Source of the DNA: Octopus vulgaris
Lineage: Eukaryota
Reading direction: 5' to 3'
Length of the DNA stretch: 64,000 nt
NCBI GenBank assembly: GCA_951406725.2
Contig: OX597817.1
Location: forward strand, 133,238,001-133,302,000
In this document: positions 36,857-64,000 of the stretch, piece after piece
How the letters are laid out: each line of letters opens with the position of its first letter
Numbering within the stretch: position 1 is the stretch's first letter
The notes under the pieces: generated by a model
The model's database searches: none
What the model saw: the letters and a program-made list of their open reading frames with translations, nothing else
What the model was told of the DNA's origin: nothing
Made by a program: the position numbers and the translations under genes

Positions 36857-38107
36857 ACATTCTGTTCAAAGTTATTAAATATACGCAAATACCCTCAGTG
36901 ATACATGTGTGAGTACACACACACACACACACGCGCGCGCGCGCACACACACATGTAAACGTATATACATACATAAATATGAATACACACACATACACGC
37001 ACACATATATATATACATACATATATACATGCAAACAGATATATGCGTGTATATATGCATATGTGAACATATGTAAGTTTAAGTTGTTAAGGGCACGAGT
37101 GCGTTTCACAAATATGGTCATACAGATACCAGTAATTACATTAATTGGGTGGTTTACAAACACTGCAAATACACATACACACACATATATATAAACACTG
37201 CTCTTTCTTTCTCCCCCTCTCTCTCTCTCTATATATATGTATATGTATATATAATATACATTCATATGTATAGACATAAGCATACGTACATAAATATGTA
37301 TGTATATATTTATGTATCCATACATACACACAAACACGCACACATACACATACATACATACATATATATATATATATATGTATGTATATATATTTATATA
37401 TACATACATATATATAATCATATATCTATTTGTGAATATACAGTATGTCTAGATTCATATACATACTGTATTTAGATACCTAAATGCAGATTTGCAATTC
37501 ATATATATACACACACACATACAATCACACACGCAAACTCACGCACACACACACACACTCAGACATAGCCGTATATGTAAGTGTATGTGTATCTACATGC
37601 ATATACATATAGATAAATAAACACAAATTTGCACACCATGTGTGTATGTGTGTGTGTGTGTTCGTGTGTGTGTATTTACATATAGATCTGTAAATACAAA
37701 TTCACACATGGTAAATGAGCTTTGATAAATGATTATTGTAGTTGTACGACGAGAAGTGTTTGAAGTGCCACATAACCACATATATATCTATTGTACTTGA
37801 CGTCTTTGACAGTTTAATTATTGGAGAAGATATACCAATGTATTAAAACGGATCATCATTTCAGAACAACTGAAATAAATATTAATTTATTGATTACACT
37901 GTTTAAATCTTTTAACATTGAACAGGTTCTTGCTGATGATGTAAACGTCAAAAACGTGGCTATTCTGAAGCAGCACAGAATGGTGTTGAATAGCTGTCTT
38001 GTCTATCAGGTATGTATTAACCAGCTTGTAAGATGTCAAAGAAATCAAACAGCGCAAAGGAATGTGAATGTTTGCCTCTACGTACGTACGTACATACATA
38101 CTTACAT

Positions 38108-38320
38108 AATAAGTTTGCAATTCAAGAACAGGAAATTGTGACAAAGTACCTGGTGAACAAGAGAGACAGTGACGCACTTCTAATCCCAAGGTGCAACCGC
38201 ATGTGTAGACTATGTCGTGTTTCTGTAGAAGAGATCACGCATGTGATTAGCAGCTGTCCTAAAATGTCGTCACGGTACTACCTCCCCTATGCGGCACGAT
38301 GTTGTTGCTAAAACAATGCA
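38108..38320 (+). mobile_element. R4/Dong-type LINE fragment (CCHC-RHD)
   Basis: FAIQEQEI..CRLCRVSVEEITHVISSCP..YYLP then, after a frameshift, RHDVVAKTM. Confidence 0.75.
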
Positions 38321-38324
38321 ATCC

Positions 38325-41300
38325 GCAGAAATTACCAGGCAGTTTTCGACCAAATTTCATGGAGGTTAGAAAATCCTCGGAACATCCCAGTCAGATTTCG
38401 AGCAAATTTCCCGGAAGTTAGACAATCGTCGGAACTTCCCAAGAACATCCCAATAACTTTCGACCAAATATCCCGGAACTTAGAATATCCTCCGAAATTT
38501 CAAGATGCTTTTCGACGAAATTTCCCGGAAGTTAGAAAATCATCGGAACTTTCCAGAAAGTTTTCGACTAAATTTCCGGGAAGTCAGAATATCTTCGGAA
38601 CTTTCCAGAAACTTTTCGACCAAATTTCCCGGAAGTTAGAATATCATCTTAACTTCCCAGGCAGTTATCGACCAAATTTCCTGGAAGTCAGAATACCCTC
38701 GGAACATTCCAGAAACTTTTCGACCAAATTTCCCGGAAGTTAGAATATCCTCGGAACTTTCCAGAAACTTTTCGACCAAATTTCCCGGAAGCTAGAAAAT
38801 CCTCGAAACTTTCCATAAGCTTTTCGACCAAGGCAGTTTTCGATCAAATTTCCTACAAGTTAGAAAATCATCGGAACATCCCAGAAAATTTTCGACCAAA
38901 TTTCCCGGATGTTGGAAAATCCTTGGAACTTTCCAGAAACTTTTCCACCAAATTTCCCGGAAGTTAGAATATCCTCGGAACTTCCCAGGCAGTTGGAAAA
39001 TACTCGGAATTTTCCAGAAAGTTTTCAACCAACTTTCTTGGAAGTTAGAATATCCTCGGAACTTACCAGAAACTTTTCGACCAAATTTCTCAGAAGTTAG
39101 AAAATCCTCGGAACATCCCAGAAAATTTTCGACCAAATTTCCCGGAAGTTGAAAAATCCTTGGAACTTTCCCAGAAGCTTTTCCACTAAATTTCCCGGAA
39201 GTTAGAATATCCCCGGAACTTCCCAGGCAGTTGGAAAATACTCGGAATTTTCCAGAAAGTTTTCAACGAACTTTCTTGGAAGTTAGAATATCCTCGGAAC
39301 TTACCAGAAACTTTTCGACCAAATTTCTCAGAAGTTAGAAAATCCTCGGAACTTGCCAGGCAGATTTCGACCATGTTAGAAAATCCTCGGAACATCCCAG
39401 TCAGTTTTCGAGCAAATTTCCCGGAAGTTAGACAATCCTCGGAACTTCCCAAGAACATCCCAAAAAATTTTCGACCAAATTTCCCGAAATTTCAAGATGC
39501 TTTTCGACGAAATTTCCCGGAAGTTAGAAAATCCTCGGAACTTTCCATAAAGTTTTCGACAAAATTTCCGGGAAGGCAGAATATCCTCGGAACTTTCCAG
39601 AAACTTTTCGACCAAATTTCCCGGAAGTTAGAATATCATCTTAACTTCCCAGGCAATTTTCGACCAAATTTCCTGAAAATCAGAATATCCTCGGAACATT
39701 CCAGAAACTTTTCGACCAAATTTCCCGGAAGTTAGAATATCCTCTGAACTTTCCAGAAACTTTTCGACCAAATTTCTCGGAAGCTAGAAAATCCTCGAAA
39801 CTTTCCATAAGCTTTTCGACCAAGGCAGTTTTAGATCAAATTTCCTAGAAGTTAGAAAATCCTCGGAACATCCTAGAAAATTTTCGACCAAATTTCCAGG
39901 AAGTTGGAAAATCCTTGGAACTTTCCAGAAACTTTTCCACCAAATTTCCCGGAAGTTAGAATATCCTCGGAACTTCCCAGGCAGTTGGAAAATACTCGGA
40001 ATTTTCCAGAAAATTTTCAACCAACTTTCTTGGAAGTTAGACCAAATTACGATCAAATTTCCCGGCAGGTAGAAAATCCTCGGAATTTTCCAGAAAATTT
40101 TCGACCAAATTTCTGAGATGTTAGAATGTCCTCGGAACTTTCCAGAAACTTTTCGACCAAATTTCTCAGCAGTTAGAAAATCCTCGGAACTTCCCAGGCA
40201 GATTTCGACCATGTTTCACGGCAGTTAGAAAATCCTCGGAATTTTCCAGAAAATTTTCGACCAAATTTCTCAGAAATTAGAAAATCTTCAGAACTTCCCA
40301 TGCAGTTTTGGACCAAATTGCCTAGAAGTTAGAAAATCGTCGGATCATCCCAGACCAAATTTCCCGGAAGTTAGAATACCCTCGGAACTTTCCAGGCAGT
40401 TTTCGACCAAATTTACCGGAGCTTAGAAAATCCTCAGGACTTCCCAGGCAGTTTTCGACCAAATTTCCCGGCAGTTAGAAAATCCTCGGAATTTTCTAGA
40501 ATATTTTCGACCAAATTTCCCGGAAGTTAGAAAATCCTCGGAACTTCCCAGGCAGTTTTCGACCAAATTTCCCGAAGGTTAGAAAATCCTCGGTACTTTC
40601 CACGCAGTTTTCCACCAAATTTACCGGAAATTAGAAAATCCTCTGTACTTCCTATGATGTTTTCGACCAAATTTCCCGCAAGTTAGAATATCCTCGGAAC
40701 TTTCCAGTAAATTTTTGACAAAATTTCTCAAAAGTTAGTAAATCCTCGGAACTTCCCAGGCAGATTTCGGCCATGTTTCCCGGAAGTTAGAAAATCCTTG
40801 GAACTTCCCAGACAGTTTTCTACCAAATTTCATGGAAGTTAGAAAATCTTCGGAATTTCCAAGGCAGTTTTCGATCAAATTTCCTAGGAGTTAGAAAATC
40901 CTCGGAACATCCCAGAAACATTTCGACCAAATTTCTTGGAAGTTGGAAAACTCTCGCAACTTTCCAGAAACTTTTCGACCAAATTTCCCGGAAGTTAAAA
41001 ATCCTCGGAACTTTCCAGGCAGTTTTCGACCAAATTTCCCGAAGGTTAGAAAATCCTCGGAACTTCCCATGCAGTTTTCCACCAAATTTACCGGAAATTA
41101 GAAAATCCTCGGTACTTCCTAGGATGTTTTCGACCAAATTTCCCGGAAGTTAGAAAATCCTCGGAACTTTCCAGAAACTTGTCGACCAAATTTCTTGGAA
41201 GTTAGAACATCCTCGGAATTTTCCAGAAACTTTTCGATCAAATTTCCCGGAAGTTAGAAAATCGTCGGAACTTCCCCGGGTGTTTTCGACCAAATCTTCC

Positions 41301-41347
41301 GGAAGTTCGAAAATCCTCGGAAATCTCTAGAAAATTTTCGAGAAATT
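38325..41347. repeat. ~3-kb tandem satellite with ~52-bp monomer and ~1-kb higher-order duplication
   Basis: Consensus approximately TTTTCGACCAAATTTCCCGGAAGTTAGAAAATCCTCGGAACTTTCCAGAAAC; about 55-60 monomers by length. Confidence 0.97.
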
Positions 41348-41399
41348 AAAGAGAAATCCATTTGCCTTAATTCTCTACCATATAGCGAGTTAAAGAACC

Positions 41400-41930
41400 T
41401 TTCTCCGACTTTTCCTGTGATACCAAGATTTCCTAAATTATGACAGATGATTCTATGTCAAACGCCTTAACAATATCAGGGTTTTAACAGTCAATGATCT
41501 TTCCCCTTAAGAGATTATTAGAGGTAGTGTCATGATGCTGTAAGAATTGTGACAGCTACCTTCGTTCAGTCCGAAACCTAAGTGTCATCTAAGTTGTTTT
41601 CCTCCATGTATGTTATTACTTTTTGTCTTCGGACAAGGCATTGGGTAATTTTAGACGTGTAAGACGTGAGGGAAACAGGTCTGTAATTTTTAGCTTCAGC
41701 ACTGCTACCTTTTTTGTACCTATATAGGTTTTATTATAGCTTCTTTGAATAGTCTCGGGAATATGGCGGTATCTGGCGACTTTTGAAACAGTACCTTTAA
41801 TGATTTCATGAGGTGGTTTTTGCACGTTTTTTAGCAATATAACTGGAATACTATTTGGTACAGATGCTGAGTTTGGGCCTAAATCATTAATAGCCGCAAA
41901 TATATCAACTTCCATGATATTAATTTTAAG
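41400..41930 (-). mobile_element. CR1/L2-type LINE fragment (RT N-terminal part)
   Basis: DIFAAINDLGPNSASVPNSIPVILLK (K.A.GPD.I-like) and ENYRPVSLTS in the adjacent frame. Confidence 0.7.
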
Positions 41931-41934
41931 TTGT

Positions 41935-43040
41935 GTCTCTGCACTTGAGTTGTGGGATCAAAGAATTCGCTTGGATTATGCACGGGGCTGCGATACGGAC
42001 AGAGAATGCGGCCTTCCGCCTGTTGAAACATAAATGCCCACGAAGACCTCTATCCGGCGCAGGGGTGAAAATCTCCGCAAATGGTAGGCTTAAATGTCCG
42101 TTGAAGATGTTGAAAGTCGGATGAGATCTCCCTGCATCCTCCGTCGTTTTAGTGAAGGCAATGCCAGCCGTCGGAGATGTTCATCTTACGCAAGCTTAGA
42201 CAAGCCCGCGCCCATTCGGGTGGCCAAGTGCTGAACCCATTCCAGGTGCTGAATGTCTTTCTGGAGATATGGGTTTGAGGTATAGATGTAATATTCGAGG
42301 ATGGGTCGAACTAGAGTGATATATACAGGCCAAATGACGTCCATTGAAAGGTTAGCAAAGGATCGGTGGATGAGAAAAAGATTCTTTCTGGCTTTGTTCG
42401 CTGCCTCAATACCCTGCCGTAGTAGTTTGAAAGTAGTATCGATCATTATGCTAAGATCCTTTTCTTCAGTGACCATCTTAAGATGTTGATGTTTGTGGCC
42501 AATAGTCAAGGGAGAGTTTGGAGGTGAACCTATTGGCAAATGGCTGCATTTTGAGGCGTTCAAGTTCAGATTCCATTCTTCCGCCCAATTCCAAGCTCGG
42601 TTCAGCGACAATTGGAGTATGTCGTATTGATTCCTAGGTGAGACAAGTTTGACGTCGTCTGCAAATAGGAGAACTCTTCCATCAAGAAAATCTGACAGGT
42701 CGTTGATATAGAGAAGGAATAGTATTGACCCCAGCACTGACCCCTAGGGAACGCCGCTGCATGCATTCGTCTCCGCTGAGAGATCTCCATTTATCTGCAC
42801 CCAAAATGTTCGATAGCTCAGGAAGGAAGAAATCCACAAAATCAACAATGGATGAATCTTGAATGCTCGAAGTTTGCGCAAGAGAAGTCAGTGATTAACG
42901 GAGTCAAATGCCTTTGCGAAGTCCAAAAATACCACGCCCACCAAGTCTTTTTCATCCATGGTCCTTGTAATCCATTCTTCAAGAAGGAGAAGATTTGTTA
43001 GGCAAGATCTTCAGGGTAGAAATCCATGCTGCGAGTCGAA
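41935..43040 (-). mobile_element. CR1/Jockey-group LINE, 5'-truncated RT
   Basis: QHGFLP*RSCLTNLL, DFAKAFDSVNH, SGVP*GSVLGSILFLLYINDL, LFADD and LVRPILEY motifs. Confidence 0.9.
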
Positions 43041-43719
43041 TATTTCTTTGTACCATATACAGATAATTGTATAATGCTTTGGTTGGAAATAGCTGTGGGA
43101 ATGACATGAACATTGTGAATAAAACAAAGTCGAGTATGCTATTTTCCCCTAATTGGACAGGTAATAATTTGTTGTATGGGAAAGTCTTTTGTTGTATCGA
43201 GGAAAGGGTTCATATCCCTCCACATCAGCTGCTTGGTTCCAGGCTGGATATAATCCTCGGACCAGCTAAGATTAGTAAAATTAAAGACCCCTGTTAAAAG
43301 CATATTAGCCTGTGTGCTGGCCTCAGCTAGGGTTAGACTTGTGAGTAAAAAAAAGCACCTCTGAAGTGATCTTCGTGGTTAAACGCGTCAGGATGACGGT
43401 AGGTAATGCTTTCAATATCATTTCCTTTTTATATAAATTAGTCTGAAATTGTCGAATACATTTCTTTGCAAATTAGGTAATTTCGGGGTTGGTCTGCAAT
43501 CATTTATAGTGAAATGTTTCCTTTCAAAATCTTTTTTTTTTTTTATCAAACTGGACTAGTATTTCGAATGAGCAATAAGTATCAAAGCATTTAACAATGA
43601 GCATTAAATATCAAAGATAAAAATAAATCATTTTGTTCCCTTGTCAAACTTTAGACCTAACAACCTAAATAAGAAAACCGATATGACTGAAATAATTTGT
43701 AAAGGGCTTTTATTTTTAG

Positions 43720-43894
43720 GCTGAGGTCAAACAGTCGAATCCATTCAACCATGTCGTCAGTCTTTAGCAACATCAACTTCAAAGAACTTGAGAGAGGTGA
43801 CAGACTGAGAGAAGACAAGAACCTTCACACATTTTCAGCATTGCAAGATTTTGGAGTTATTTGTGTCAGAATAGAGCTGTCTTCAAGAATCCAA
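43720..43894 (+). CDS. Weak candidate host exon
   Basis: Acceptor CTTTTATTTTTAG|G, open frame ..MSSVFSNINFKELERGDRLREDKNLHTFSALQDFGVICVRIELSSRIQ, donor CAA|GTAATG. No homology recognised. Confidence 0.15.
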
Positions 43895-44174
43895 GTAATG
43901 CTATGTATTGAAGAGTAGCCATAGATGCTGGTCATATTGTTGTTCTTGTTGTTTGCTGCTACTGTTGTTGTTGTCACTTACTTTTTTATTTTGACGCTAC
44001 TTTGCTTCAGAAGTTGGTTAGTCATAAATTCCCATGGGAATTTTAAGCCCAGCTTCATCACTTTTATTTATTTATTTTTGCTCTTTGATTTTGCTTTGAA
44101 ACGAAATCTAGCTTCAATCATCTTATACAGATAATTTTTTTAGACACTATTTTCTGAAGCTGGTAAAATTATGT

Positions 44175-44257
44175 AGGGGGTGAAAATTTTGATCTTGCAT
44201 CACCTGAAAATTCCAAGGGTGCAGGTGTACCCGCTGCACCCCCTGTTCCCGGGCCCT

Positions 44258-44260
<3 letters not shown>
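44175..44260. mobile_element. Single GC-rich DNA-transposon/MITE terminus
   Basis: Reverse complement CAAGGGCCCGGGAACAGGGGGTGCAGCGGGT..GCACCC next to (TA)n; no partner end found. Confidence 0.35.
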
Positions 44261-44307
<47 letters not shown>

Positions 44308-44632
44308 AACATATATATAGTATATTGCGAGTGGATTGAGTTCTTCATCACTAACCAGTAATTAACACACTGAAGACGGGTAACCACCCAGAAACTCGGG
44401 TCTGTGTGTATCACTTAAGGCTAGAGATGCGAACGATGACCTCCCTCGCAAATACTAATCGGACACAGACTGTGTGTCGTTAGCCAGCTGGAGGAGATGT
44501 CTTCCTGGGGCTAAAAACAACAGTAACACCATCCCCTATAGGACCGCCACATTTAGTTGGCAAATATATTTTATGATTCCGTACTGTTACTGTTTATCTC
44601 TCGCTCAGAGATTTAATATAACTTATCGCTCT

Positions 44633-61245: not shown

Positions 61246-63345
61246 GGGGTTGACCGATGTTAGTTGATTACATATTTTACATTTTCACTGACAGAGCAAT
61301 CCTATTTAATGCATTCTACTGCATCTTGTATGACACGCATAAATCAACCATAGCAGAAGTCTTACAAAGCTAGAGATCTCATCTGCTTATTGTCTGGATT
61401 TATATTTTGTGCATTTTCTAAGACCACTTAAATGTGTCGACTTGCCCCGATACCGGGGCAAGTTGACACATATAATGGGGTATGTTGACACATGAATGCA
61501 TTTTCTTGGAACATACATGTTAGTGGACAGAAACACATGATATAAGCTTGTTGGTTTCATCAAGGGCTTTTATTATGGTTTCATTACATATCTTCATCAG
61601 AGTCACAATTTGGACATGGGAATATTGTCAGACCTGGTGTGCATGCATCGTGAGCCCAACCTTTACAATCAGAGCATTGAAGCCACACTTCCTTTCCTGT
61701 GCTGTTGGAAAAAAGGCTCGCAGCACACTAAGCAATAGCACTCTTCCTCATCAGAGGTATCACTTTCTTGAATTTGAACTTTTTTCTTAACAATTGGACC
61801 TTTTCCCTTCGTTGACCTACCCTTACTGAGTCCCTTTCCTGTCGTTCCTTTATCAATGTTTGTCTTCTTTTTACTTTTACTTTTTGTCTTTTCTTCTATG
61901 ATTGCTCTTTTAACCGGCGAGTCAGTGAGGATTTCAGAACGTTTCTTTTTTCCTCTGGTTGATTCTTTCCTAGGGCCTGCTTTGAGTAGTGGACGGATTT
62001 GAAATGGTGAAAGAAAAGACCTGGCGGTTATGTTGCTTGAAGGCCCAGGTGTTGCAGGTGCTGAAGGCCCAGGTGCTGAAAGTGCAGGATCCGGTCGGTC
62101 GGTGACATAGCTTGGTGCAAAGTCGCTGTCTGTGAAAATGTTGCGATTAAAATGGCATATTCCTGTAGAAGAAAAGCCAGTAAGAATGTTCGTCGGAGTT
62201 GCAGTCAATGGCCATGCAGTTTTGACAATACACGGAATGTCATAAATGATCATGGTCTGGCCAGGATGGTTGATATGCCAGTCGTCAATGGCAGTGTTTG
62301 TGTACTTCTTCATTGGTCCCTAGACTGCTTTGCCCAACGGCTGCAACCTGTGTGTGCAGTGAGGTGGGAAAGAAAGCATGGTGATGCCATTGTCTGATGC
62401 ATAAGTCAGCCCCTCGATACTAAGGTGGGAATCGTGATTGTCCAGCAAGAGAAGGCACAGTGACTGCTTTGAACATTTCACATTCCTCACAAAGTGTTGA
62501 AAAAATTTCACAAACTGCTCCTCACAAATCCAACCAGATGGATTAGCACCTCCATCGCTGCCTGATGATCCATTGTTCAGGAAATGTGGCCTAAAGTTCT
62601 TCCGGGGAAAAAACAAAATACGGAGGTATACTGTTTCCAGCGGCATTCACACAGCATACCAATGTGACCAGAGTTCCCCTCCCCGCACTTGTCATTTTCC
62701 CCACTTGCTTTGTTTCTTTTCTGGCAATAATTATATCGGGGCGCTGCACAGTTGTTTTGCCAGTTTCATCCATGTTGTAGATATTGAATGGATCAAATTT
62801 ATCTCGAAGCATCACTTCAGCAAGCTGGTTGAAAAACATAGCAACATTTGTCTTGTTGAAACTTGCTGCTCGTGCCAAGCTTGTTGCCTGTGGACTTCTT
62901 ATGGATAAATTCTTGTGTCGTTGAAGATATCCAGAGAACCAGTCTTCACCTGCCATTTCTGTCTCATGCCAGGTTGGAGGGATATTACATCCATGTGCCT
63001 TTGCCATCTGAAAAGCCAATTTCCGCACATCCTTTGGAGCAAGCCCATAGTAAATTTCTGCGGCAGCCAAAACATAAGCCTCTAAATGATTCTCGAACTC
63101 GTCGGTGAGAACTTGCCGTGGCTTTTTGTATCCACAAAGACTGTGGTCGTTGTTTGCTTCAGCAGCCTTGGTGCAGTAGGGAAACAGAGATTTTAAATAG
63201 ATGCCAATTGTCCTCGAATCTTCATGCAAGGAGATTACACGAGCTCGAACCTGTTGAATAGCCTGTTGGATTACATTCTGTGGAAGGGTTGCCCTCTCGC
63301 TTTTGCGTTTGTCGCACCATGACAATTGTAGATCTAGGTCTATAA

Positions 63346-63377
<32 letters not shown>

Positions 63378-64000
63378 GAGAAAAAATAGCAATTTAGCTC
63401 AAGGCATAATCCAATAGTGAAAGCAAAACGAAGCTCTGAGTGTTTACCTACTTTATAGTTTGAAGCATGCCTGGTCACGGCATAACTTCATGCTTATAAA
63501 TCAGTGGTACAGGTTACAAAGCTGAGGCAGTATACAAGCTGTTGACTAAGTAGGTAGCTGTATGAAGATAGAATAGGTTGGTATAGATAAAGATAGCTGA
63601 TCTAAAACTATAGCAAGCAATACATAAATTACTCAATGAATTGATCCAATGTACCAGACATGAATCAAATAGCAAACACTCTTAGTTAAAATGGGATAGA
63701 CACAGTCTGTGAATCAATGTAAGTAACCTACAACAACTTTATCAAAGGCTGGGGCAAGCTGACATACTGTGTCAATGTTCCCCTGTTTACATGTGTCAAC
63801 TTGCCCGGACCCCATTTCCCTCGTAAATGAAAACACCGAGAGAAAACCACTAGGGTTTCGCAAGAATCCATTTGTATAGGGTCGTGAGAGATATTTTACT
63901 AACTCCTTAAGGTTTAATACACATAATGCAGTCTTAAACAATATCCAAAATAACTAATTGTCAAAAATGTCGAAAATAATTTACCAAGTGGAAAATTCCA
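61246..64000 (-). mobile_element. pogo/Tigger/Fot1-type DNA transposon (CENP-B-type HTH + DDE_1 + C-terminal Cys motif), frameshifted; far end probably beyond the window
   Basis: ORFs 62591-63478 (AGEDWFSGYLQRH, IYNMDETG), 62320-62646 (SGW, LLLDNHDSH, FPPHCTHRLQPL) and 61669-62313 (GFSSTGICHFN, CYCLVC). Starts TA|GGGGTTGACCG; subterminal GGGGCAAGTTGACACA repeats at ~61433-61490 and ~63751-63806. Confidence 0.9.

Follow-up and report, generated by a model that had tools for sequence, protein, structure and literature searches.

Tandem arrays carried by non-autonomous DNA transposons have been described for the miDNA4-MITE of Xenopus tropicalis, the CgHINE Helentrons of Crassostrea gigas, and the DINE elements of Drosophila (PMC9659126). 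In Caenorhabditis, Helitrons bear heat-shock elements (HSEs) family-wide, with evidence from ChIP, induction, and gene proximity (PMC6927752, PMC6765114), and the arrays of human Satellite 3, a platform for HSF1, TEAD, and NFAT, reach 8 Mb (PMC11526998). Short terminal inverted repeats (10–25 bp) and 8-bp duplications define hAT elements (PMC3942097). The array studied here, from a 64,000-nucleotide stretch of octopus DNA (the window), is a transposon-borne minisatellite as in PMC9659126; what is new is its hAT carrier and a one-base switch from a GAS-type site to an HSE in one copy. No prior description of the repeat or of the element was found in titles and the opening lines of abstracts, with subscription journals and repeat databases outside this scope.

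Within its 3,023 bp, the array contains 19 perfect three-unit HSEs (18 GAAnnTTCnnGAA and one TTCnnGAAnnTTC), where 0.04 would be expected from composition; none occurs in the remaining 61 kb of the window. Eleven of the 18 GAA-first HSEs continue into two further one-mismatch units, making five units with two mismatches. GAS-type sites are represented by 38 copies of TTCN3GAA (the TTCNNNGAA consensus, PMC4990345), including 21 counted as TTCC[CG]GGAA. An earlier note on this DNA had quoted examples of both motifs, and both are where it placed them (Table 1). It had also spoken of many monomers with an HSE; the motif is real and is found in about a third of the gap-free monomers of the window (15 of 42), with a GAS site in 24 of 42. 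As to its Rel/κB-like reading, the array has 13 copies of GGAACTTTCC, but these lack the third G of the stricter Rel/NF-κB consensus GGGRNWYYCC, which has no match there. The comparison with shuffled controls that it had proposed was run with consensus patterns, not position-weight matrices: among 50,000 dinucleotide shuffles of a circular 52-mer, 1.6% contain the HSE, 18% a GAS site, and 0.27% both, where the chance unit is a single monomer rather than the whole array and the null disregards the unit's own build from shorter GAA/TTC-rich subunits. TRF calls the 52-bp array at 38343–41341, with 57 copies and 69% matches. A coding repeat was considered and rejected, as stops break the overlying frames into pieces no longer than 181 aa.

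Table 1. Features of the window in and around the 52-bp array
Feature	Position	Strand	Basis
High-copy repeat piece, probably LINE, truncated at the array; marks the side of the lost arm	38113–38317	+	Other copies 87%–93%
52-bp minisatellite array, ~57 units, central cargo of non-autonomous hAT element	38325–41341	+	TRF; family search; between arms in sister copies
Block duplication: 38478–39069 recurs 992 bp downstream, up to 98% identical	38478–40061	+	Offset scan
Example of first GAS-like palindrome, TTCCCGGAA, monomer columns 14–22	38522–38530	+	
Example of HSE-type monomer end, GGAACTTTCCAGAAA, monomer columns 37–51, A at column 49	38545–38559	+	
Block duplication: recurs at +238, 99%	38912–39145	+	Offset scan
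Block duplication, offset 467, up to 95% identical	40512–41221	+	Offset scan
Arm of hAT-derived element; first ~440 bp and entire other arm absent from window copy	41343–44259	.	93% identical to L068 arm
Broken LINE reverse-transcriptase fragment within arm	42186–42740	-	Pfam RVT_1 E=4.3e-7; same fragment in L068 arm E=6.5e-24
hAT transposase N-terminus remnant	43419–43537	-	72.5% nucleotide identity to L155, E=3e-15
Terminal inverted repeat; sharp element end at 44259	44244–44259	-	12/16 bases match opposite end in sister copies
(TA)n flank beyond element end	44260–44325	.	

We think it probable that a broken, non-coding hAT transposon, which spread in a burst to about 100 places, carries the array as its central cargo, and that the HSEs of the array are a local one-base variant, duplicated and unselected. 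Across the genome (2.8 Gb, 227 contigs), a 311-bp piece of the array is matched 310 times, on many different contigs (of 172 candidates, 40 were scored). The 38 other array loci were drawn from 150 of these 310 matches, so that the sample leans toward window-like arrays. The arm seen in the window adjoins the array in many sister loci, at ~84%–98% identity and with the same sharp stop, and other sister loci have a 2.4-kb arm on the opposite side of the array with an equally sharp start; arm sequence is present in 23 of the 38 loci. The two element ends form a 16-bp imperfect inverted repeat, each beginning with CA. Eight of the nine two-ended loci selected through the array have an 8-bp target duplication (six exact and two at 7/8, with none in L033), and so do all nine selected through the left end with both ends inside 10 kb (seven exact, two at 7/8). 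The latter come from 38 further stretches that cover the left-end hits outside the first array set, 15 of which have some form of the repeat. Overall, 17 of 18 two-ended sister copies carry the duplication (13 exact, four at 7/8), or 13 of 14 after four microsatellite targets are removed. These duplications, the short inverted repeats, and descent from a transposase gene place the carrier among the hAT elements. A Helitron or Helentron carrier is ruled out by the 8-bp duplications and inverted termini; rolling-circle insertion makes no such duplication. The analogy with Helitrons drawn in the earlier note was right in kind, but overlooked the hAT element.

Exact end patterns number 45 on the left and 41 on the right (the latter a 25-mer) genome-wide. 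An exact match to the pattern is found in six of the 13 left ends inspected, so ~100 element copies are likely, as an estimate; a right-arm piece has 130 genome matches, split and weak ones counted. Arm trees are unresolved stars with a mean pairwise identity of 94%–95% (13 and 18 rows), which we read as one past burst. The idea that HSE-rich arrays make up a single transposon subfamily found no support in these unresolved trees. No coding partner with matching ends was found: the best 30 of 122 DUF4371 loci end differently and share the transposase remnant only, and a relaxed end-pattern search gave 44 hits, 41 of them already known. Given its different ends, the 720-aa DUF4371 family is a relative and not a proven mobilizer. 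It is a young hAT family (L153–L182) with many open 720-aa frames, and TA repeats frequently flank its copies.

That the array benefits its own element, by offering subterminal binding repeats for the transposase or an internal stress-responsive promoter that would have aided the burst, strikes us as very improbable. The array does lie between the arms in many copies, and heat-responsive transposons are known from published work; however, at ~2.4 and ~3.4 kb from the element ends it is not subterminal, and three of the nine two-ended copies with intact duplications (L072, L083, and L095) are without an array, which they may have lost later. Moreover, a promoter would find no coding frame in the element, and perfect HSEs are missing from family-type units.

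The window copy is incomplete. The repeat piece that marks the side of its lost arm has 39 other scored hits among 1,458 candidates and a weak zf-RVT match (E=0.035), and the missing left arm was not found within 60 kb (SINE-only hits filtered out). With a single end and a (TA)n flank, this copy's target duplication is uncheckable. Pfam searches of the arms returned LINE reverse-transcriptase pieces only and no hAT transposase domain. The 119-bp transposase remnant lies about as far from the terminus as its counterpart in the coding family, where the frame of L155 encodes 720 aa with DUF4371 and Dimer_Tnp_hAT. Another arm stretch was first read as a transposase zinc finger; nearly all top copies keep the same stops, so this reading was dropped, and the true remnant lies elsewhere. 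The left arm of L053 (2135–2605) contains a Mariner-transposase-like fragment, seen by eye in a six-frame reading, with no Pfam hit.

Rearrangement is common among the sister copies. In many of them (in L032–L068 and L074–L097), deletions run from the array edge to a variable position in the arm, and inverted pieces adjoin the array in L032, L040, L055, and L079; breaks or template switches may be concentrated at the array. L075 (301–9969) consists of a left arm, an array, a second partial left arm, and a second array, with 146 units in total, a tandem duplication in one copy.

The transposon is one carrier of the unit and not the sole one, since 15 of the 38 array loci are armless. In eight of these (L035, L041, L043, L044, L050, L052, L060, and L062), the unit alternates with 9-, 10-, 13-, 22/23-, 34-, or 59-bp satellites, and mosaics with the 52-bp unit include a large one near the end of contig C2. 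We infer that capture of the unit by the transposon from the satellite mosaic is the simplest order. L031, L038, L051, L054, L061, and L063 are arrays of 0.5–2.4 kb without arms or mosaic neighbors, and L047 lies within a 63-bp satellite. C2 also has ~55 kb of a 65-bp satellite (215,528,486–215,584,024; L117–L123), whose units are 98%–99% identical. It lies 19 kb from the end of the contig, bordered by 34-bp arrays, an AAT repeat of 16 kb, and a 13-bp repeat of 17.7 kb, and is a candidate centromeric or subterminal satellite. The 38 loci contain 146 of the 207 family-type 24-mers in the genome, which puts the whole family at an estimated ~92 kb. Set against the ~950,000 GAS sites and 35,000 HSEs expected genome-wide by chance, this is too little for the decoy role that had been proposed for the array.

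The family-type unit is built of four TTC-N3-GAA-like modules, at columns 3, 14, 32, and 43, of which two are perfect and two have one mismatch. Their centers lie 11, 18, 11, and 12 apart, and the perfect sites 23 and 29 apart. The same two modules also appear as irregular 21–26-bp forms, both in the satellite mosaic and in part of the transposon copies. GAS-like modules are more abundant in the unit than in its shuffles (P=0.0006 for two perfect and four near sites). A STAT-type module, or one read by another TTC/GAA-reading factor, would be consistent with this richness: on that reading, the unit would belong to a set of genome-wide factor-site satellites, shaped by binding and exported by the hAT element as homotypic clusters. 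TTC-N3/4-GAA is kept in 766 of 970 non-window monomers, the other 38 loci have 15.8 GAS sites per kb, and the alternation with other satellites at eight loci fits as well. Spacing gives a mixed picture. Modeled STAT5 tetramer spacing has its main peak at 20–21, a minor peak at 11, and troughs near 13, 18, 23, and 28–29 (PMC4990345, PMC5673064); only the 11-bp distance falls on the minor peak, but the main spacing is absent and the perfect sites lie at troughs. The modules also descend from one short unit, and thus are not independent of one another.

Tests of column conservation bear on the same question; they cover the 29 loci that have ten or more gap-free monomers, 916 monomers in all. Family divergence is 0.156 in the HSE columns versus 0.127 in the rest (base-matched P=0.77), and 0.128 versus 0.133 for the first GAS core (P=0.61). 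Base-matched tests on the window alone gave P=0.91 for the HSE columns and P=0.37 for the first GAS core, and in the window the HSE columns are the least conserved class (divergence 0.177 versus 0.106). The two perfect GAS sites together show no protection (P=0.69), and of the 18 changes possible in the first GAS core, 10 have spread in at least one array, compared with 54 of 138 elsewhere. The earlier note had proposed testing whether the motif positions vary less than other monomer positions and had named decay like that of the rest of the monomer as evidence against its reading; the HSE and perfect-GAS columns are as variable as the others, the very outcome it had named. Three results point the other way. 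The matching bases of the imperfect modules are more conserved than base-matched columns (P=0.007, for one of 11 masks and with neighboring columns non-independent), all four modules together give P=0.02 (or 0.15 with column 44 included), and the cores of the short-unit form are more conserved (P=0.027, in seven related loci). The most variable family columns (18, 44, and 48) retain TTC-N3/4-GAA. The signals of the imperfect modules and the short-unit cores, few among 11 masks on related loci, are hints; they would favor a STAT-type module, but the unprotected perfect sites, the fall of the four-module signal with column 44, and the loss of the second site in all 42 window monomers weigh against it, and from the sequence we judge it unlikely.

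Perfect HSEs do not characterize the family as a whole and are nearly confined to the window copy. In 1,012 gap-free monomers from 43 loci, the perfect HSE is found at its position in 12 of the 970 monomers outside the window, against the 15 of 42 inside. Its density is 6.3 per kb here versus 0.46 per kb in the 38 other loci, 25 of which have none, and the earlier note's description of a satellite composed of such elements does not hold for the family. The HSE-type 24-mer occurs six times genome-wide, four of them in the window array, while four family-type 24-mers account for the 207 cited above. Column 49 is G in ~90% of the family. The modules 11 bp apart already give GAA-n2-TTC, so that a single G>A at this column completes a three-unit HSE: the last palindrome becomes the third HSE unit and the second GAS site is destroyed. 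A at column 49 is the commonest derived allele in the window (25 of 42 monomers), and its rise could equally be due to drift or to selection. Strict self-BLAST gave no internal duplications; an offset scan revealed those of Table 1. Of the 18 GAA-first HSEs, six are copies made by the duplications at +992 or +238.

These HSEs would be used if the window copy were a working heat-shock platform, with cooperative binding of HSF trimers at the 19 sites feeding local transcription or a distal enhancer. By analogy, there is something to be said for it: in addition to the density of HSEs and their extension to five units, among C. elegans probes it was the tetrameric and pentameric sites that proved heat-inducible (PMC9148306), motif density within Satellite 3 is tracked by HSF1 ChIP (PMC11526998), and Helitron HSEs are bound by HSF-1 and induced (PMC6927752, PMC6765114). 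HSF-domain exons are present in this genome, and A at column 49 is found in 18 of the 20 window monomers with T at column 44. The last association, however, is what descent from a single monomer would produce, and the HSE columns of the window are those that vary most. The Helitron effect was measured at up to 2.5 kb from genes (PMC6927752), but here no recognizable host gene was found within 60 kb on either side in exon and frame scans of 184 kb, in which small exons or a promoter could be missed. On balance, a working platform seems improbable.

The 184-kb scans showed transposon pieces, and the sole CpG-island-like window is ~66 kb from the array. An 84-bp open stretch bounded by AG and GT ~315 bp upstream of the array (37926–38009, + strand) is a possible exon with no Pfam match, and broken DDE-transposase-like frames are visible by eye at 61672–63487 (- strand), with no Pfam hit at E 0.01 for 62594–63487.

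For the broken transposon with an unselected local variant, which we favor, the following course of events can be proposed. A unit of four TTC-N3-GAA-like modules, observed also in short irregular units and armless mosaics, would be the starting material, and a hAT element would have acquired a block of it together with LINE pieces. The composite element then appears to have transposed in a burst, to which the termini, target duplications, and star tree testify, presumably by means of an enzyme made elsewhere. Copies lost parts and their arrays changed in length, as is seen among the sisters, and the window copy lost one arm. At an existing GAA-n2-TTC junction, G>A in the second palindrome completes the HSE, and block duplications raised the count. 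The perfect HSEs are thus likely to have arisen as a by-product, and not to be maintained as a stress switch. Because 11 of the 18 extend to five units, HSF binding in vitro is a plausible prediction; given open chromatin, HSF could bind the cluster without any maintained function.

A bolder combination of these elements would have the hAT element capture a STAT-site satellite module and sow dozens of clusters, with one base change plus duplication re-tuning the window copy from STAT to HSF as a bound platform. We consider this unlikely; if such re-tuning were true, nature would here provide an example of a repeat that changed its signaling input by one mutation. The sister arrays constitute a natural experiment on the point, with a common backbone and one base deciding between GAS and HSE spacing. 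If HSF were to bind window-type arrays alone and STAT family-type arrays alone, it would become apparent how cheaply stress-responsive sites can be created and switched by repeats in a cephalopod-type genome. Apart from this, the locus is a clean example of a DNA transposon spreading a minisatellite, and it advises caution, as the duplication of a local variant can be enough to give one array a dense motif cluster.

Compared with known systems, the octopus element shares with miDNA4-MITE, CgHINE, and DINE its non-coding class II character, a central tandem array of variable length, and dispersal to many chromosomes (PMC9659126). Unlike them, it is hAT-derived, with an 8-bp duplication and a DUF4371-clade remnant, measures ~6 kb without the array, also bears LINE pieces, and carries a unit that exists outside the element in mosaics. 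As in the Caenorhabditis Helitrons, tandem HSE-like repeats are held by a DNA transposon (PMC6927752, PMC6765114), but the octopus carrier is not a Helitron, its perfect HSEs are putative sites nearly limited to one copy, and no gene is recognized nearby. Human Satellite 3 resembles the array in its motif density, in having HSF1 motifs in sub-regions only, and in that both follow from the repeat unit (PMC11526998); it differs in scale, as the octopus family totals ~0.1 Mb in arrays of 0.2–5 kb. A structural parallel to the carrier is found in the MITE-like hAT copies of BuT2, which likewise have short inverted repeats, 8-bp duplications, and an internal deletion of the transposase (PMC3942097), whereas the octopus element is larger, has captured cargo, and ends in imperfect inverted repeats.
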